Virus record (IMG/VR): IMGVR_UViG_2563366840_000010 | Coordinates: 1 to 45,700 of that record | DNA from: a virus | Lineage: Duplodnaviria; Heunggongvirae; Uroviricota; Caudoviricetes | Reading direction: 5' to 3' (one strand) | Length of the DNA: 45,700 bases | Shown here: positions 6,356 to 17,455 of the stretch, in pieces | How positions within the stretch are numbered: the stretch's first letter is position 1 | How the letters are laid out: every line of letters begins with the position of its first letter | Position numbers and translations under genes: made by a program | The notes under the pieces: model-generated | Databases searched by the model: none | Seen by the model: the letters and a program-made list of their open reading frames with translations, nothing else | What the model was told of the DNA's origin: nothing

Positions 6356-6859
6356 TTATGAATTCCTGGCAAATGAACCATGATTCGCTTTGCGGAAGTC
6401 GCGTATTGCTTCCGCAGCCTTTTCTAATTCAATAAAAGTTCCTACCGTGAATCTTTTGCCATTAACTCGGCACATGGCTGTCCAGCGTTGTTTCCCTTTG
6501 TGCCAATAAACTCCTTTCACTCCGCTCGTATTATTTTTCTGAAGCGGTTTATTGAAGTTATTCTGTGAGCAAGTAGCCTCGCGGAGATTCTCCAGCCTGT
6601 TGTCAGAGCAATTTCCATTCACATGGTCAATCTGGTCTTCAGGCCATTTTCCGTGTGTATAAAGCCAGGCCAAGCGGTGTGCTCTGTATTTCTTTCCATC
6701 GATGATGATTCGTACATAGCCGCGCGTATCTAAATTTCCAGCAAAATCACCTGCGGTTATCCGTCCGCGATTTTTGAGCCATGTGAATGCTCCTGTTTCA
6801 GGCGAGTAGCTGAGCAATTCCTTCAGTCGTGCCAGTGATAATTTTTCTCGCATATTCAT
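6356..6859 (-). CDS. HNH endonuclease with AP2-like DNA-binding domain (~167 aa from internal ATG; ORF extends to 6913)
   Basis: HNH motif region DHVNGNCSDNRLENLREATCSQNN plus GVKGVYWHKGKQRWTA..EKAAEAI AP2-type segment. Confidence 0.8.
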   Translation of the reverse strand: MNMREKLSLARLKELLSYSPETGAFTWLKNRGRITAGDFAGNLDTRGYVRIIIDGKKYRAHRLAWLYTHGKWPEDQIDHVNGNCSDNRLENLREATCSQNNFNKPLQKNNTSGVKGVYWHKGKQRWTAMCRVNGKRFTVGTFIELEKAAEAIRDFRKANHGSFARNS

Positions 6860-6864
6860 CACCG

Positions 6865-7026
6865 TTAGCCTTCGTGAGCCATCTGGTCGTGCGAAGCGCA
6901 ACGTTTGGAGCAATACTCTTTTTCTTTGCGCGCCAGCTGTGAGCCGTTGCGATAGAGAAGGGTGCTCTTGATTACTTCCTCCGTTTTAACCGGCTTGCCG
7001 CAATATCCGCATTTCTTGTCTAACAT
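6865..7026 (-). CDS. small zinc-ribbon protein (53 aa, CxxC...CxxxC)
   Basis: Unlisted short ORF MLDKKCGYCGKPV...CSKRCASHDQMAHEG; GGAGG 7 nt upstream of the ATG; fits between two co-oriented genes. Confidence 0.5.
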   Translation of the reverse strand: MLDKKCGYCGKPVKTEEVIKSTLLYRNGSQLARKEKEYCSKRCASHDQMAHEG

Positions 7027-7037
7027 GACATCCTCCG

Positions 7038-7388
7038 CTAGTGGCTGAGTCCATGCCCCAGACCGTTCAGATAAACTTCAACCAGCAAATCCTTGGTGTA
7101 AGTCATTTCTACGCCGCGATGCAGATACAAACGTCCGCGAGCGTTAGCTGATGCCGTCCAGGTTGAGTCTTTGTGTTTGACGAGCATCCCCGGCTGAACT
7201 GCGCCGCGGTTTACTGTCTGTGTACCGTAGTGCTGATGAACCATGATGTTCTCCAGTTTTTCTGAGTGAACTTCGCTGGTGGTGCCGCGGCGCTGATCTT
7301 CACAGTTGAGCGTTTTAACTCTGCAATTCACCACCGCGAAGCTCACTTCTGTGTTTGCCCTTGTCGCCAGGCTGGCGGAACGTTTCAA
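7038..7388 (-). CDS. hypothetical protein (116 aa ORF; alternative start at 7244 gives 68 aa with a better RBS)
   Basis: First gene downstream of the putative pL-like promoter; no recognisable motifs. Confidence 0.35.
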   Translation of the reverse strand: MKRSASLATRANTEVSFAVVNCRVKTLNCEDQRRGTTSEVHSEKLENIMVHQHYGTQTVNRGAVQPGMLVKHKDSTWTASANARGRLYLHRGVEMTYTKDLLVEVYLNGLGHGLSH

Positions 7389-7493
7389 ACCTACTGCGCG
7401 TTAATATCACCACCTCATTCCGGTTTTCGTATGCCCCGGACGGCTACTTCGTGGGCTCCATGCCTGGGTGGTTCGTGGTGCGTCTTGGTGAGT

Positions 7494-7523
7494 TAGATTA
7501 AATCACTGGTTTATATATATGTC
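7494..7523 (-). promoter_or_regulatory. putative leftward early promoter (pL-like): TTGACA-17-TTTAAT on the minus strand
   Basis: Reverse complement of 7518..7523 is TTGACA, of 7495..7500 is TTTAAT; overlaps an operator-like site. Confidence 0.45.
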
Positions 7524-7562
7524 AACTTAAGGTTGGTGTTAATTGTAAATCTGAGGTTTATG
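7496..7562. promoter_or_regulatory. two operator-like sites (oL): TAAAT-N5-GTTTAT at 7496..7514 and 7544..7562
   Basis: Same motif recurs twice between cI-like and cro-like genes. Confidence 0.45.
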
Positions 7563-7599
7563 TGGCTGGGTTTTGTGACACGTCTGCAGAATCGCAGGC

Positions 7600-7640
7600 A
7601 AAAAAAATCCCGACGCTAAGGTCGAGATCGGGGACTTCGT
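7600..7640 (-). terminator. intrinsic terminator (hairpin + T8 on minus strand)
   Basis: Reverse complement reads CCCGA..TCGGG stem followed by TTTTTTTT. Confidence 0.5.
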
Positions 7641-7680
7641 GGCTGGGTGTTGGCGGCTGAGATGGTGGGTGAGGGTGTAA

Positions 7681-7712
7681 AAAACCCGGCGCTGTGGCCG
7701 GGTTTTTTCATT
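7681..7712 (-). terminator. intrinsic terminator, bidirectional (CCCGGC-gctgtg-GCCGGG flanked by A/T runs)
   Basis: aaaaaCCCGGCgctgtgGCCGGGtttttt; downstream of the AT-rich gene on the minus strand. Confidence 0.7.
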
Positions 7713-7832
7713 ACTGCTGGTTAAATCCTTTCGGCGAGTGCTGCTGTTCTTTATTACCAAATTTTTGATTTACAATGATTTTATAAGCGTTATTGAGAGC
7801 TTGCTTTATAGACATTAATATCTCCTTATGTG

Positions 7833-9236
7833 TTATTGACGATTAAAGTAGTTAGAGTTTAGCTCTTTAGGGAAGTAGTGTTTACGATTTACCCAAACAA
7901 ATCCATCAACTTTTGATATCACAGCGACATCAACAGGCCCACCGACAGTTTCATAATCATGTGATACTTTTCTTTTGAATGCAGTGATGTTCACTAATGA
8001 TTCGGCCATATACGCAAGATCTGCCTTCCCAAGTGATTGCAACATCGATATCATTTTATTTGTATGGTTATTAACAATATAGCTTTCAAGTTTAGTATCG
8101 TGATCTTGTAAAAGTACGTTTTTGAGTTCCTCAATTTCACTGGAGAAGTGATTGGCTAGTACTCCATTGTTCATTGCAGGGAAAATATTGCTAGAAACAT
8201 AATGATTAAGCCGATCAAAAACTTCCTCTGTAAGAGTTCTGTTAAAATTAATGATGTTAGGGTTGCACCCATCAATGAAAGTTACTACTTCATCTTCTTG
8301 AGCAAATGGTATAACAAACCCCATATTGGTTACCTCATTATGGGATTTATCATCAATATTATGGATCATCAATTTGTTTTTAAAAATGCCGTAGATATGA
8401 AGAGTGCAAATGGAAGGGTAATATTCTTCCTCTCCATAACCTGTTATAACAATCCCTGAATATGTACGACTAGCATGGACTTTGAAAATTAAACAAGTGG
8501 AATATAATATGACTTTTTCCATAAGCTCTTGCTGTATATTTTCACAGTTATCAAGAACAATAATTGATGAAATGTATGGCGATATTAAATCTTGTATATA
8601 TGCTAAAGCATCATTAAACTCTTCTGTATCAAACCCTTCGAAAAAGAGATTATTCCTTAAGATTCCTATCTCTAAATCAAAGGCTTGCTTAACTATGTTT
8701 TGAAAAATAACATTGTCGAGTTCAACGGCGGGGTTCATTGTTAAATAGTTTACTACATTATTATCATTAATGTATCTCATCAAACCTTTGAGGTTATCAA
8801 CAACAAGGTTTATAACGCAAGCCTCTCTCATTTCATTTGTTATAAGGTCTGAGTTACCATTGATGAATTTTACAAAGTCATTAACATATTCTTTAATGGT
8901 AGGGAAACTAGTTTTCCCCAATTGTTTTCTATAGGATTTAATTATAAGTTCCCACGGTGCGCCACCCAGTGTCGCATTATTATAAATCATGATCCCCACG
9001 GGATGGTGTTTAGATAGTTCGAATAGTTTTTCCGCACTATTATTTATTTTTACTAATCTATTATGCTCTGTGGTGACTGCAGAGTCAGCAGCAAGGGCGA
9101 TTCCAGTATTATTTATTACAACAATCTCAGCTGTCATTGCAAAACATCCCGTGTAGTAGTGATAAATATTAATTAAATTGATAGTTTTTTTCAATCTAAC
9201 ATAAATGGCGGAATCACCCCCCAGTAAAGACATCAT
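7833..9236 (-). CDS. AT-rich accessory (moron) protein with proteasome-beta/HslV-like motifs; likely true start at 9137 (434 aa)
   Basis: Long ORF co-oriented with and 43 bp downstream of the repressor gene; visibly AT-rich; internal start gives MTAEIVVINNTGIALAADSAVTT; C-terminal VGGPVDVAVISKVDGFVWV. Confidence 0.7.
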   Translation of the reverse strand: MMSLLGGDSAIYVRLKKTINLINIYHYYTGCFAMTAEIVVINNTGIALAADSAVTTEHNRLVKINNSAEKLFELSKHHPVGIMIYNNATLGGAPWELIIKSYRKQLGKTSFPTIKEYVNDFVKFINGNSDLITNEMREACVINLVVDNLKGLMRYINDNNVVNYLTMNPAVELDNVIFQNIVKQAFDLEIGILRNNLFFEGFDTEEFNDALAYIQDLISPYISSIIVLDNCENIQQELMEKVILYSTCLIFKVHASRTYSGIVITGYGEEEYYPSICTLHIYGIFKNKLMIHNIDDKSHNEVTNMGFVIPFAQEDEVVTFIDGCNPNIINFNRTLTEEVFDRLNHYVSSNIFPAMNNGVLANHFSSEIEELKNVLLQDHDTKLESYIVNNHTNKMISMLQSLGKADLAYMAESLVNITAFKRKVSHDYETVGGPVDVAVISKVDGFVWVNRKHYFPKELNSNYFNRQ

Positions 9237-9278
9237 TGTCTCATGGGAACTAAAAATTCAGGACAAACCTAAAGCGAT

Positions 9279-9662
9279 TCAGTCCCCCTGCGAGCGAATC
9301 CGCCCCTTCATGTACTTCTCGTACAGCTCATCTAACTCTTTCAGGCGAAGCGCAAAAATGCGGAGCATGTTCTGCTGCTCTTCTTCCGGTAACTGGCGGT
9401 AGAGCTCGAGCAAACGCTGTTCGTCCGGTTTGAGACCGTCTTTCTCTCCAACGTCTTCACCGAGTAGCCAGGCGACAGAAATACCAACAGCGTCGGCTAT
9501 GGCCAGTGCCGATTTCTTACTAATCACGCCTTTTTTGAACCAGCCGTTTACGGCCTGAGGGGTGACTCCAGCTATTCTTGCCATGTCTGCTTTGGTAACG
9601 CCGCGATCAGTGATCTCAGTAAGGCGCTCCACCAGAACGAGGTTGGGTTCTTCTTTTCTCAT
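9279..9662 (-). CDS. CI-like prophage repressor, HTH-XRE type, no peptidase domain (127 aa)
   Basis: HTH segment KADMARIAGVTPQAVNGWFKKG; divergent from cro-like gene; the listed 217-aa ORF is an upstream extension without RBS. Confidence 0.8.
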   Translation of the reverse strand: MRKEEPNLVLVERLTEITDRGVTKADMARIAGVTPQAVNGWFKKGVISKKSALAIADAVGISVAWLLGEDVGEKDGLKPDEQRLLELYRQLPEEEQQNMLRIFALRLKELDELYEKYMKGRIRSQGD

Positions 9663-9670
9663 ATGGTCAT

Positions 9671-9736
9671 TGTAAATATTTGGTTTATGCACGCAATAAA
9701 TCCAAAGTTTGCATGAAGTATAAATCTGTGGTTTAC
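9671..9736. promoter_or_regulatory. oR-like operator region: TGTAAATatttgGTTTATG (9671..9689) and TATAAATctgtgGTTTAC (9719..9736) plus divergent promoters
   Basis: Repeated sites matching the oL copies; candidate pR TTGCAT-17-TTTACT upstream of cro. Confidence 0.5.
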
Positions 9737-9764
9737 TTCTGCTATCAATAAGCAGGAGAAGCAC

Positions 9765-9983
9765 ATGTCCGCACTCGATAAAGCAATTAAAGCCGCTGGC
9801 TCTGCCAGAAAGCTCAGCATCGCGCTTGGTGTGACGAGTATGTCTGTAAGTCATTGGAAGAATCGTGACCAAGGGATCGTCCCGCCAAGCTATATCTTCC
9901 CGATTTTCAAAATGACAGGCGTAACCCCCCACGAGCTGCGCCCTGATCTCTATCCAAATCCCACTGACGGATTACCAAAGTAG
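9765..9983 (+). CDS. Cro-like / YdaS-family HTH regulator (72 aa)
   Basis: AGGAGAAG RBS; small HTH protein divergent from the repressor. Confidence 0.8.
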   Translation: MSALDKAIKAAGSARKLSIALGVTSMSVSHWKNRDQGIVPPSYIFPIFKMTGVTPHELRPDLYPNPTDGLPK

Positions 9984-9994
9984 GAGCACTGACA

Positions 9995-10552
9995 ATGCAA
10001 ACACTTTCTTTTCAACAGAATAACAGAGCGCCATCAGAGCACCTGAAATTCCAGTATCAACACAGTGAGGCTGAAGGCCAGCCGGTCGATCACCGGGCTA
10101 TCTGTTCTGCCGTCCGCGCCTGGGCGGCGGCAGAGGGCCGCGTGGCGGTCGCTCTGGCGATTAAAGAGGCTGCCGAACAGGCCGAGCTTGACAGCATTGA
10201 CATGACCGGCAGCGCCGATGTGTGGAACGTGAAGCTGTTTCGCTGGCTGGACAACCACGAGAAATCACCGGCCTACCGGGCGAACGTCGAGCAGCTGGCG
10301 CCGGTAATAATTTCGGTTCTGCCGCTGGCGTACCGGGATCGCGTGATTAAGCACGACTGCTTTGCGGTTCGTGTCGCCAGGTCGGTGAAAGAAGACGCTG
10401 AGGCGATACAGGCTGTCGTCCTCAAAGCCCCCAGACACGAACGGATGAAGGAAATCAGCGAGAGCATCGTAGCCAAGCTCTACCTGGACGGACCTGATTC
10501 TGTGGCGCCCATTATGGCGATGGTTACAACGATGCTGGGTGGTGCGCTATGA
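9995..10552 (+). CDS. YdaT-like / CII-position regulatory protein (185 aa)
   Basis: Follows the cro-like gene with AGGAG RBS; segment FRWLDNHEKSP..LAPVIISVLPLAYRDRV resembles Rac YdaT from memory. Confidence 0.6.
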   Translation: MQTLSFQQNNRAPSEHLKFQYQHSEAEGQPVDHRAICSAVRAWAAAEGRVAVALAIKEAAEQAELDSIDMTGSADVWNVKLFRWLDNHEKSPAYRANVEQLAPVIISVLPLAYRDRVIKHDCFAVRVARSVKEDAEAIQAVVLKAPRHERMKEISESIVAKLYLDGPDSVAPIMAMVTTMLGGAL

Positions 10553-10636
10553 CGGGCTCAGAAATGGCGAAAGCCGCGGTGCTCGAACACCAACGGCTTT
10601 CAGGTGCAAAAACTGTGCGTAATTGCGGAGAACAGT

Positions 10637-11545
10637 ATGTCAAATACCGCTGAAATAATCAATTTCCCAAATAAAACCGAACAACCGGGAGGTCGTATGG
10701 CCGACCTGTCGAACGGGTATACCAAGGTCGCTAACGAGATCCAACAGCTTAAGCCTCGCCTGAGACTGTCAGGCCGGGAATGGCAATGTTTTGAGGCGGT
10801 GATCTGGCTTACCTACGGCTGGAACAAGAAACAGGACCGCGTGACAAATACGGTTATTGCCGAGCTTACGGGCCTGAGCGATACGCATGTATCGGACGCG
10901 CTTAAGTCTCTCGCAGAACGCAAAATCATCTTTTCACAGAAGCAGGGCATGATGAAAATCGTCGGTGTAAACACTGACCTTTCAGCATGGATTTTAGACA
11001 AACCGGAAACGGGAAGAAAATTCCCGAAAACGGGAAAATCCTTCCCGAAATCAGGAATAACCTTCCCGAAAACGGTAGACACCCAATACAAGAACAAGAA
11101 CAGTATTAAAAGATCTTCGTCCGAGAATTCTGACGAATCCTCTGACGCACGTCTGAAGAAATTTTTATCAACTCATCCTGAAGCTGCGGTCTACACACCA
11201 TCCGGTGCGAAGTGGGGCTCTGCTGAAGACCTCGAGACAGCTAAGTGGATTTCCTCCAGGGTGAAGCTGATTAACCCAACCTGCAAAGCCCCGGACATGA
11301 CCTCCTGGTCTAACACTGTTCGCCTGATGCGCCAGATAGACAACCGGTCGCACCAGGACATCTGCGCGCTGTATGACTGGGCTAGCAAACACCACTTCTG
11401 GCAGACCAACATCCTGAGTCCCGAAAGCCTGCGTAAGCAGTGGGACAAGCTGACAATGCAGCGTAACGCCGGAGGTGAGCAGCGCGCTGTCAAGCCAGAT
11501 CTGGACTTCAACAACACTGACTGGGCCTATGGGGTGATCCGATGA
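10637..11545 (+). CDS. O: replication initiator, lambda O-like (302 aa)
   Basis: N-terminus MSNTAEIINFPN parallels lambda O MTNTAKILNF; GGAGAA RBS; iterons inside the gene. Confidence 0.8.
   Translation: MSNTAEIINFPNKTEQPGGRMADLSNGYTKVANEIQQLKPRLRLSGREWQCFEAVIWLTYGWNKKQDRVTNTVIAELTGLSDTHVSDALKSLAERKIIFSQKQGMMKIVGVNTDLSAWILDKPETGRKFPKTGKSFPKSGITFPKTVDTQYKNKNSIKRSSSENSDESSDARLKKFLSTHPEAAVYTPSGAKWGSAEDLETAKWISSRVKLINPTCKAPDMTSWSNTVRLMRQIDNRSHQDICALYDWASKHHFWQTNILSPESLRKQWDKLTMQRNAGGEQRAVKPDLDFNNTDWAYGVIR
11003..11075. repeat. origin iterons: four copies of TTCCCGAAAACGGGAA-like inverted-repeat units at ~20 bp spacing, followed by an A/T-rich tract
   Basis: Seen directly at 11004..11017, 11021..11038, 11041..11057, 11061..11075; encodes the GRKFPKTGKSFPKSGITFPKT protein repeat. 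Confidence 0.65.
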
Positions 11546-13078: not shown

Positions 13079-13106
13079 AACCCGCTACGGCGGGTTTTCT
13101 TTTTTT
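13079..13106 (+). terminator. intrinsic terminator (CCCGC-tacg-GCGGG + T-rich run)
   Basis: Seen directly. Confidence 0.65.
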
Positions 13107-13168
13107 ACTACTGACAGAAAATTAACAATTTGTGCTCTTAAAGCGTTGATCATTTCCGCGCATAGGTA

Positions 13169-13188
13169 TACTGTATAAAAACACAGTA
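13169..13188. promoter_or_regulatory. LexA (SOS) box TACTGTATAAAAACACAGTA
   Basis: Exact CTGT-N8-ACAG with TA flanks, 19 bp upstream of the dinI-like ATG. Confidence 0.8.
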
Positions 13189-13206
13189 AATGCAATGGGG
13201 GCCATT

Positions 13207-13440
13207 ATGAAAGTTGAATTAACCATTGATCGCATGAAAGAACTTCCTAAAGGCGCAGTACCAGCACTGGAGAAAGAACTGCTTAAGCGCCTGAATGATC
13301 ACTATGACAATTGCAGGCTCACAATCCGCCGTGCCGGGGCCGATGGGTTAAGTGTTTTTGGTGGTGACAAGGACGATAAAAAGAAAATTGAATCAATCCT
13401 CCAGGATACCTGGGAAAGCGCTGACGACTGGTTTTATTAG
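13207..13440 (+). CDS. dinI: DinI-like SOS-inducible protein (77 aa)
   Basis: MKVELTIDR...ILQDTWESADDWFY closely parallels E. coli DinI including the WESADDWF C-terminus. Confidence 0.85.
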   Translation: MKVELTIDRMKELPKGAVPALEKELLKRLNDHYDNCRLTIRRAGADGLSVFGGDKDDKKKIESILQDTWESADDWFY

Positions 13441-13557
13441 AATTGCGCTTAAGGCTGGCGCGCATTTTTCAGAATACCGCAATTTGCGTAACCCTCTGAT
13501 GCTGCTGCCGACAATCTTTAATCGCGTCTGTTAGTCGCTCGAAGGGAGAACATAAAT

Positions 13558-13806
13558 GTGAGTGATTCAGCTTTGCAAACGTCAGAAGACAACTGGTATG
13601 ACATTGTAAGAAGGTCTGACGGCTGCGTGGTGTTTAGCTTTCCTTCATCGGGCAGGCATCTAATTTATCGCGTCAATGGCATGGTTTCTATGCGGCCTTT
13701 GCTGGATGATGAAGAGGTCTTTACTCCTAATGGTTTTATGCAGTTTATTCACCGTCTCGGCTACCGGGTAACCCCACCTTCTGATAATATGAAATCAACG
13801 GTCTGA
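13558..13806 (+). CDS. hypothetical protein (82 aa, GTG start); candidate LexA-controlled antirepressor
   Basis: GAAGGGAGAA RBS; directly downstream of dinI in the same unit. Confidence 0.45.
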   Translation: MSDSALQTSEDNWYDIVRRSDGCVVFSFPSSGRHLIYRVNGMVSMRPLLDDEEVFTPNGFMQFIHRLGYRVTPPSDNMKSTV

Positions 13807-16443: not shown

Positions 16444-16518
16444 GGGTCAGTCGTATAAAGGTCATTACGGAAGGCTGTTAACCTTCTTATCGTGGTTCGA
16501 GTCCACGCTGTCCCGCCA
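16444..16518 (+). tRNA. tRNA-Asn (anticodon GTT), phage-encoded
   Basis: Hand-folded cloverleaf: acceptor stem with one T-T mismatch, D-loop with GG, anticodon stem GAAGG/CCTTC and loop CTGTTAA, T-arm CGTGG-TTCGAGT-CCACG, discriminator G, CCA. Confidence 0.55.
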
Positions 16519-16980: not shown

Positions 16981-17397
16981 GCTGCGCGTCAGAGGTTCGA
17001 TTCCTTTGCCCGCTCCAGTAAAAGCTTTCCAGTCTGCGATGATGGGTTCCCCGGAGTGACTGGAAAGCGACCTGGTTTTGAATGGGCGCTGCTTTTTGCA
17101 AAATTGCTGTGTGAAAATACTGACCTTTGGGTTCAGCGCTCATCCAAAAGCATCACGTGAATTCACCAACGCTCATGTACTCTCCAGGAAACAATAAGTG
17201 ATTCTGAAAAGTTCCGGTTAGATATTGCCCCGGTCACCGGATGATTTTATCTTTTGGTTCGTGGTGAATCCCCCTATGCGGCGGGGCGTCCAGTCAAACT
17301 TTTTTGTCCAGGTTTGTTTGCGCGGAACTAGTCGGCTGGGGCTGTTCCACCGGGAGGCACCCGGCGCCACCTCCTTGACGGTATTGTTATTTTTCAT

Positions 17398-17424
17398 GCC
17401 TGTTCGTCCGAGCAGGCTTTTTTT
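17398..17424 (+). terminator. intrinsic terminator (GCCTG-ttcgtccgag-CAGGC + T7)
   Basis: Seen directly; no convincing plus-strand CDS upstream. Confidence 0.6.
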
Positions 17425-17455
17425 GCCCGCATTATCTTCATTGAAAACTGGCAAC

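Follow-up and report, generated by a model that had tools for sequence, protein, structure and literature searches.

The 45.7-kb stretch of viral DNA analyzed here (IMG/VR record IMGVR_UViG_2563366840_000010, positions 1 to 45,700; referred to in full as the window) contains an immunity region with repeated, roughly palindromic sites on both sides of its repressor gene. The region follows the lambdoid order: a PL operon, OL, an accessory gene, the repressor gene, OR, cro, cII, and the O and P replication genes. The repressor gene, which encodes a protein of 127 amino acids (aa) (9279 to 9662, minus strand), diverges from a gene for a 72-aa Cro analogue of the YdaS family (9765 to 9983, plus strand; Pfam YdaS_toxin, 1.4e-13; phrog_35), and the right cluster of sites fills the 102-bp gap between them. 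Downstream of the cro gene lies a gene for a CII-like activator of the YdaT family (9995 to 10552, plus strand; Pfam YdaT_toxin; phrog_163, CII-like transcriptional activator, 3e-40), and the replication genes come next. Although the Pfam names would describe these two proteins as a toxin-antitoxin pair, we favor the Cro/CII reading, given their position after PR, the PHROG annotation, and the experiments done on prophage CP-933P. The left cluster of sites lies beyond a gene for a 467-aa cargo protein (7833 to 9236, minus strand), which sits between the repressor gene and OL.

The repressor matches Pfam HTH_3 (and, weakly, Phage_CI_repr) and combines a helix-turn-helix (HTH) domain like those of 434 and P22 c2 with a C-terminal helical domain. 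In its AlphaFold model (mean pLDDT, 84), a five-helix domain (residues 8 to 66) is joined through a linker to a short helix (79 to 89) and a long helix (93 to 125), and Foldseek aligned this N-terminal domain with the DNA-binding domains of P22 c2 and 434 at 1.7 to 2.0 Å over 60 to 64 residues. A sequence search of the PDB with the repressor found no close solved relative and only weak matches to the 434 repressor; matches to poly-ubiquitin were dismissed as spurious, being driven by the short stretch DGLKPDEQRL. The Pfam search gave no Peptidase_S24 match, the protein is too short at 127 aa to hold such a domain, and its C terminus is helical in the model. Since the S24 self-cleavage domain is absent, the repressor should be neither cleaved nor subject to RecA-stimulated cleavage. 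The parallel with lambda that had been drawn in the first-pass annotation, made from the sequence before this analysis, therefore holds for the operator logic described below but not for inactivation: unlike lambda CI, this is a short protein of the Gifsy/DicA type without a self-cleavage domain. Repressor homologs occur throughout the Enterobacteriaceae, and at least 1000 Salmonella contigs carry one that is 90 to 91% identical. The cluster names for the repressor, the cargo protein, and a candidate antirepressor described below were all "hypothetical" or generic, and one cluster member was named DicA by its source.

Repeated sites flanking the repressor gene

A scan of both strands of the entire window for the core TAAAT-N5-GTTTA returned four exact matches, at 7499 to 7513, 7546 to 7560, 9673 to 9687, and 9721 to 9735. 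The expected number was 0.06, and none of 100 dinucleotide-preserving shuffles reached four. The first-pass annotation had placed four sites in two clusters, left and right, and this arrangement was borne out, as were its coordinates with one qualification: the longer form that it gave, T(G/A)TAAAT-N5-GTTTA(T/C), is exact at 7544, 9671, and 9719, but the first site (7497 to 7514, ATTAAATCACTGGTTTAT) has two mismatches in its 5′ flank. The scan also revealed no part of the window outside the immunity region in which the motif occurs at a similar density. When the window was scanned with a weight matrix derived from the corresponding sites of two relatives only (phage PHB10 and E. coli P27_L1), the four sites scored 25.8 to 28.6 bits, compared with 14.6 bits for the next best position. 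Local AT richness does not explain the sites, since the 1.4-kb cargo gene between the clusters, with a GC content of 34% that is about the same as that of the operator patches, contains no exact core match and only one with a single mismatch. Taken together, the core and weight matrix scans confine the same roughly palindromic site to two locations in the window, one on either side of the repressor gene.

Two other matches were considered and rejected as functional elements: a second CTGT-N8-ACAG sequence at 8532 to 8547, inside the cargo gene, and the 14.6-bit operator-like sequence at 9174 to 9188, just upstream of it. Chance is the probable explanation for both, since the AT-rich cargo DNA in which they lie is also found in a prophage of another immunity class.

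Each site is a 15-bp pseudopalindrome, TAAAT(C)-N3-(G)GTTTA. The strong sites on the left are OL1 (7499 to 7513, TAAATCACTGGTTTA; exact core, 28.6 bits) and OL3 (7546 to 7560, TAAATCTGAGGTTTA; exact core, 25.8 bits); those on the right are OR3 (9673 to 9687, TAAATATTTGGTTTA; exact core, 26.6 bits) and OR1 (9721 to 9735, TAAATCTGTGGTTTA; exact core, 26.3 bits). We aligned the operator regions of 11 loci whose repressors belong to the specificity class of the window (from Escherichia, Enterobacter, Leclercia, Atlantibacter, Pseudocitrobacter, Pseudescherichia, and Phytobacter). In this alignment 14 of the 15 positions of OL1 are invariant, and the half-sites of OL3 are conserved. More generally, the invariant columns coincide with the half-sites, the TTG of each −35 element, and the −10 hexamers, and the DNA between the sites is variable.

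Two middle sites that are absent from the first-pass annotation most likely make each side tripartite, in the order OL1-OL2-OL3 on the left and OR3-OR2-OR1 on the right. The putative OR2 (9697 to 9711, TAAATCCAAAGTTTG) is a one-mismatch match of 9.7 bits that is located exactly 24 bp from both OR1 and OR3 and belongs to a conserved block, CAATAAAT...TTG. The putative OL2 is degenerate (about 7522 to 7536, TCAACTTAAGGTTGG) and is the weakest part of the map, located 23 and 24 bp from OL1 and OL3. Its equivalent is a one-mismatch match in Klebsiella phage Kp4865-4, in which three sites can be recognized on each side, and a two-mismatch match in PHB10. The resulting spacings, 24 plus 24 bp on the right and 23 plus 24 bp on the left, correspond to approximately two helical turns.

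The sites of the window's specificity class are asymmetric, with a left half of TAAAT and a right half that is the complement of TAAAC. All strong sites have the same chromosomal orientation at OL and OR, such that the half turned toward the promoter at OL1 is the opposite of that at OR1. The TAAG class described below differs in that its OL1 and OR1 are mirror images.

Three promoters were assigned by direct sequence reading and conservation; they are predicted rather than mapped. PL (7497 to 7525, minus strand) is composed of TTGACA (7525 to 7520), a 17-nucleotide (nt) spacer, and TTTAAT (7502 to 7497), with a TGn before the −10 element, and would transcribe leftwards into kil, an HNH/AP2 gene, and recE. 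Its −35 element is conserved in the 11 loci. PR (9709 to 9737, plus strand), composed of TTGCAT (9709 to 9714), a 17-nt spacer, and TTTACT (9732 to 9737), likewise has a TGn before its −10 element; it would drive cro and the cII-like ydaT gene, and its TTG and −10 element are conserved in the same alignment. A PRM-like promoter (9669 to 9696, minus strand) reads TTGCGT (9696 to 9691), a 16-nt spacer, and TACAAT (9674 to 9669).

The sites are arranged closely around these predicted promoters. OL1 covers the spacer and −10 element of PL, and OL2 covers its −35 element; OL3 is off the promoter, 20 bp upstream of the −35 element. The left sites had been described as overlapping a TTGACA-17-TTTAAT promoter, which is thus true of the site at 7499 but not of the site at 7546. 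On the right, OR1 overlaps the spacer and −10 element of PR, OR2 overlaps the −35 element of PR and abuts that of PRM, and OR3 overlaps the −10 element and spacer of PRM.

The PRM −10 element and the TTG of its −35 element are conserved in the 11 loci. So is the 6-nt gap that separates TACAAT from the start codon (ATG, with its A at 9662): the length of the gap is the same in 11 of 11 aligned relatives, and its sequence is variable. Since a gap of 6 nt leaves no room for a ribosome-binding site and its length is kept in relatives, the repressor mRNA is probably leaderless.

Co-variation of sites and regulators among relatives

We compared 60 loci, comprising 7 phage records, 3 E. coli chromosomes, 49 genomes of other species, and the window itself. 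For each locus, a motif was derived from its two best right-hand sites and searched for in the 4 kb downstream of the repressor gene, with the 4 kb beyond cro serving as the control flank. The right-side motif of a locus recurred downstream of its own repressor gene in 53 of the 60 loci, compared with 5 in the control flank; recurrence as a pair of sites 44 to 50 bp apart was seen in 33 loci, compared with none for the control flank. The spacing of the outer sites is 46 to 47 bp on the left and 47 to 49 bp on the right across 33 loci. Among 33 loci, the OL1-to-OR1 distance varies between 579 and 2662 bp, against a within-cluster spacing that is steady at 46 to 49 bp.

The left and right sites change with the HTH sequences of both the repressor and Cro, across at least eight specificity classes. 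These include TAAAT..GGTTTA in the window, TAAA..GCTTTA in mEp237, TAAAC..GTTTA in ST974-OXA48phi18.2, TAAG..GCTTA in SEN34, and ACAC..GTGT in distant relatives, among others. The differences between classes go along with substitutions in repressor helices 2 and 3. For example, TKADMARIAGVTPQAVNGW in the window becomes TKSDMARVAGITPQSVNGW in the TAAG class; the substitutions in that class are KAD to KSD and PQAV to PQSV, at helix positions taken from the model. Across heteroimmune classes, conservation is high in the C-terminal half of the repressor.

One E. coli chromosome provides a natural exchange between classes. By windowed identity profile, AREA_C483 is ~100% identical to the window over positions 6999 to 10700 except for two patches, 7479 to 7597 and 9317 to 10579. 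The first is the sole left-side segment in which the two differ and tightly brackets OL1 to OL3 together with PL, marking it as an immunity-specific patch; the second takes in OR, cro, ydaT, and the greater part of the repressor gene. In AREA_C483, TAAG-class sequences occupy the two patches. Its repressor is a chimera with a TAAG-class N-terminal domain and a window-like stretch formed by the C-terminal 61 residues, and since this chimera accompanies TAAG operators, specificity can be placed in the N-terminal domain. E. coli M172-1 presents a different exchange: over the same 6999-to-10700 interval it is identical to the window except at 7599 to 9284, where the cargo gene is replaced. At the level of sequence, these comparisons provide the strongest support for the reading of the sites as operators.

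The cargo slot, left operon, and a candidate induction module

The 467-aa cargo protein belongs to phrog_5990, a family without an assigned function, and had no Pfam or PADLOC match. Its gene has a GC content of 0.34, compared with 0.51 for the window; it is found on at least 80 E. coli contigs, and other genes take its place in relatives. The mosaic comparisons show that the slot separating the repressor gene from OL is a site at which cargo is exchanged. The cargo gene could be a defence or lysogenic-conversion gene. The slot corresponds to the position of rexAB in lambda and of a toxin-antitoxin pair in CP-933P, and it is bordered by conserved sequences, the terminator region on one side and the 3′ end of the repressor gene on the other, that look like recombination arms for cargo exchange. 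That terminator region (7598 to 7710, minus strand) contains two tandem terminators. The first (7629 to 7606, followed by a T-run) was found by scan, and the second, a two-way hairpin at approximately 7683 to 7709, by direct reading; together they would stop the repressor-cargo transcript before it reached OL and PL.

Beyond the left cluster, the left operon contains kil, the HNH/AP2 gene, and a 1129-aa RecE-like gene. The HNH/AP2 open reading frame (ORF), which matches HNH_3 and AP2 and is of the homing-endonuclease type (6356 to 6913, minus strand), lies in the PL operon between kil and recE and is absent from that position in two relatives (L008 and L009). The PL leader, ~245 nt from PL to the likely kil start codon (ATG 7244) on the minus strand (7245 to 7490), is highly conserved; the part at 7400 to 7477 is 94 to 96% identical in phages mEp237, SEN34, and SW-37, which belong to other immunity classes. 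Folding of its first ~100 nt (7389 to 7490, minus strand) gave a z-score of 0.38, which does not support a nut- or put-like structured RNA, and no N-like gene was evident downstream of PL. Rfam searches of the window and of positions 7000 to 10000 found nothing in the immunity region, where the subthreshold matches fall on terminators. Upstream of the late genes, Rfam matched a homolog of the small RNA STnc100 (17236 to 17428, 71.7 bits) and a tRNA gene (16444 to 16515, 55.3 bits).

The elements of a possible induction module lie outside the immunity region, ~940 bp downstream of the replication genes, in the order terminator, LexA box, dinI, 82-aa ORF, and DUF1367 gene (13081 to 13806 through the ORF). 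The LexA box (13169 to 13188, plus strand) is near consensus (TACTGTATAAAAACACAGTA), and the dinI homolog (13195 to 13440, plus strand) belongs to phrog_189 (3.5e-27). The GTG-started 82-aa ORF (13558 to 13806, plus strand) belongs to phrog_340, a family without an annotated function, and is present on at least 1000 contigs; the same order of LexA box, dinI, and ORF was found in relative L010. In Gifsy-1, -2, and -3, the antirepressor is the product of a small ORF with a GUG start that is situated between dinI and irsA; it binds to the short repressor and so frees it from DNA (PMC3121763). By analogy of position, size, and start codon only, the 82-aa ORF is a candidate antirepressor, and the layout of the module suggests how the prophage of the window might be induced. 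The conservation of the repressor C terminus across heteroimmune classes would fit the action of one antirepressor on two heteroimmune repressors (PMC3121763).

The proposed switch, its alternatives, and its relatives

In our view, the four sites are very likely the strong operators (OL1 and OL3; OR3 and OR1) of a lambda-style bistable switch in a Gifsy-type lambdoid E. coli prophage. The first-pass annotation had proposed lambda-like OL and OR operators flanking the immunity region, and this proposal is supported by the uniqueness of the sites, their position relative to promoters, their conservation and co-variation, and the natural swap in AREA_C483. Our reading is built on the sites themselves, their uniqueness and geometry, promoter overlap, conservation, and co-variation; from these we infer binding, order of occupancy, activation, looping, and antirepressor action.

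In such a switch, a dimer of the 127-aa repressor would read each 15-bp site through its 434/P22 c2-like HTH domain, and the YdaS-type Cro would most likely read the same sites in the opposite order of preference. In a lysogen, repressor on OR1 and OR2 would shut off PR, and with it cro, the cII-like gene, and replication, and repressor on OL1 and OL2 would shut off PL, and with it kil and recE. Repressor bound at OR2, beside the −35 element of PRM, may stimulate its own promoter, and occupancy of OR3, over the PRM −10 element, could turn that promoter off at high repressor levels. The C-terminal helices would mediate dimerization and cooperativity and might permit looping between OL and OR across the 2.2-kb cargo segment. 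Upon DNA damage, LexA would leave the dinI-antirepressor operon (13169 to 13806), and the small protein produced would strip the uncleaved repressor from DNA. A further possibility, which we regard as rather unlikely, is that the conserved asymmetry of the sites is itself functional, for example by giving repressor and Cro different affinities or by setting the geometry of an OL-OR loop across the 0.6- to 2.7-kb cargo slot.

Three other explanations of the sites were weighed against the operator reading. The sites could be read mainly or only by the Cro analogue (9765 to 9983), with the repressor using a different or overlapping element nearby. Cro was exchanged with the repressor in every comparison and its HTH also differs between classes, and in CP-933P, where two kinds of repeats were seen, the repeats could not be uniquely assigned to PaaR2 or YdaS (PMC8630535). 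However, the operator-region alignments contain no second conserved repeated element, and the N-terminal domain of the repressor is a standard dimer-type 434/P22 c2-like domain that suits a 15-bp inverted repeat. Moreover, the TAAG-class N-terminal domain of the AREA_C483 chimera sits with TAAG operators, and sharing of operators between repressor and Cro is well established for lambda, 434, and P22 and is also described for CP-933P in the paper on that prophage. We therefore consider a Cro-only role improbable.

Still less probable is that the repeats are shared promoter elements and nothing else, with PL and PR being duplicated modules whose −10-like sequence is TTTA(A/C)T. OL1 and OR1 do each overlap a TG-preceded −10 element, and PL and PR of CP-933P have identical −35 and −10 hexamers (PMC8630535). 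This explanation leaves out OL3, which is upstream of the PL −35 element at a place where no promoter was assigned, and OR3, which overlaps a different promoter on the opposite strand. The motif also has the symmetry of an inverted repeat, unlike a promoter element; the TAAG class changes the sites yet keeps usable hexamers (TTGACA-17-TTAATA in AREA_C483); and sigma-70 elements would not co-vary with the recognition helix of a phage repressor. We give the least credence of all to binding by a host factor, such as integration host factor (IHF), in place of the phage proteins. By our own reading, OL1 (AATCACTGGTTTA) is one mismatch from WATCAANNNNTTR, the textbook IHF consensus, but the resemblance is confined to OL1, and a site for a host factor would not change among TAAA, TAAG, and ACAC in step with the phage repressor in one host species.

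Several observations nonetheless weigh against parts of the operator reading. OL2 is mismatched at 4 of 10 core positions and OR2 reaches only 9.7 bits, such that the two middle sites may be weak or nonfunctional. Loci of the mEp237 type often failed the strict left-flank test, although looser scans find their left sites. Co-variation cannot distinguish whether the repressor, Cro, or both read the sites, since the two are always exchanged together. A consensus promoter scan of positions 7300 to 9900 listed none of PL, PR, and PRM; PL and PR were missed because their −10 hexamers, TTTAAT and TTTACT, have no A at position 2. The 82-aa protein is annotated as "hypothetical" in all sources, and its ORF is a candidate antirepressor by position, size, and start codon only. 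The gel shift evidence for the Gifsy repressors covers only the distantly related GtgR, and no operator sequences are given (PMC3121763). Finally, many database entries start the repressor 10 codons upstream, at GTG 9692 (137 aa); if they are right, the mRNA is not leaderless. This start would make OR3 and the repressor promoter overlap the first 10 codons of the gene, and we favor the leaderless 127-aa form because the 6-nt gap between TACAAT and the ATG is conserved.

The proposed switch resembles that of lambda, whose operators and gene order are established knowledge, in several respects. Both have three operators per side with ~23 to 24 bp between centers, OR1 and OR2 over PR, OR2 beside the PRM −35 element, OR3 over PRM, and OL over PL. 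Both also have a repressor gene that is leaderless (as predicted for the window), accessory DNA in the interval from that gene to OL (rexAB in lambda), and an OL-OR distance of ~2.2 to 2.4 kb. The window differs from lambda in having 15-bp sites of a different sequence rather than 17-bp sites, in lacking an S24 domain and any evident N gene after PL, and in using YdaS and YdaT as its Cro and CII analogues. The DicA/DicC system of Qin and the RacR/YdaS system of Rac, two cryptic prophages of E. coli K-12 whose short repressors are not cleaved, are of the same broad class; Qin has three operators at both its PR-like and PL-like promoters, and its DicA is controlled by the antirepressor Rem. However, these prophages are defective, their operator sequences differ, and identity is only 27 to 28% (27% for the dicA-annotated repressor of a Rac-phage record by tblastn). 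With 434 and P22 c2, the repressor shares contacted outer half-sites of 4 to 5 bp around a nonconserved central spacer; the 434 operator is ACAA-N6-TTGT. It differs from them in sequence (22 to 25% identity) and in operators, and those repressors have a cleavable C-terminal domain.

By layout, the closest family is that of Gifsy-1 and Gifsy-3, with the repressors GfoR and GfhR and the LexA-controlled antirepressors GfoA and GfhA (PMC3121763), a likeness drawn from their description rather than from sequence. The shared features are a short repressor without a cleavage domain (127 aa here versus about 136 aa there), recE on the left, a cII-like gene and O/P replication genes on the right, and a terminator, LexA box, dinI, and small GTG-started ORF followed by a DUF1367 (irsA-like) gene. 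The window differs in its E. coli host and its cargo gene. The mEp237 relative is annotated as similar to a regulator of S. Typhimurium 14028S. We found no sequence-level description of the operators of GfoR, GfhR, mEp237, or the wider repressor family in the searchable literature.

Among switches that have been dissected by experiment, the nearest one built from the same parts is PaaR2/YdaS/YdaT of CP-933P (Sp12) in E. coli O157:H7. Its architecture was established with footprints and reporter fusions, along with the finding of a leaderless repressor mRNA, and its PaaR2 forms octamers (PMC8630535). Both systems have divergent PRM and PR promoters (in an intergenic region of 97 bp there versus 102 bp here), OR repeats plus a second set with PL beyond the cargo downstream of the repressor gene, a YdaS-type Cro, and a YdaT-type CII. 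Both also have a short repressor whose C-terminal helical domain carries an LPE-EQ motif, and a leaderless repressor mRNA, proven there and predicted here. The CP-933P repeats are different (four inverted repeats, consensus GTTTAGTAA), its cargo is a ParE toxin-antitoxin pair, and the prophage is cryptic. We located PaaR2 through a published primer and compared it with the window repressor; at 19% identity over the C-terminal 81 residues, it was rejected as a close homolog and is better described as an analogue and remote relative.

The immunity region is thus a control region of an ordinary, already understood kind that has been correctly read; it extends the picture from lambda, CP-933P, and Gifsy by one member and leaves the current understanding unchanged. 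What it adds is a precise map of the switch, with six operators, three promoters, a probable leaderless start, and a candidate induction module, in a very common family of enterobacterial prophages, together with a clear example of an immunity module split into two small specificity patches around an exchangeable cargo cassette. If the asymmetry of the sites were functional, then this family, with its split module, would lend itself to work on how operator specificity and looping cope with inserted cargo. More practically, a table matching operator classes to recognition helices could predict from sequence alone which prophages of this family are homoimmune and which are heteroimmune.

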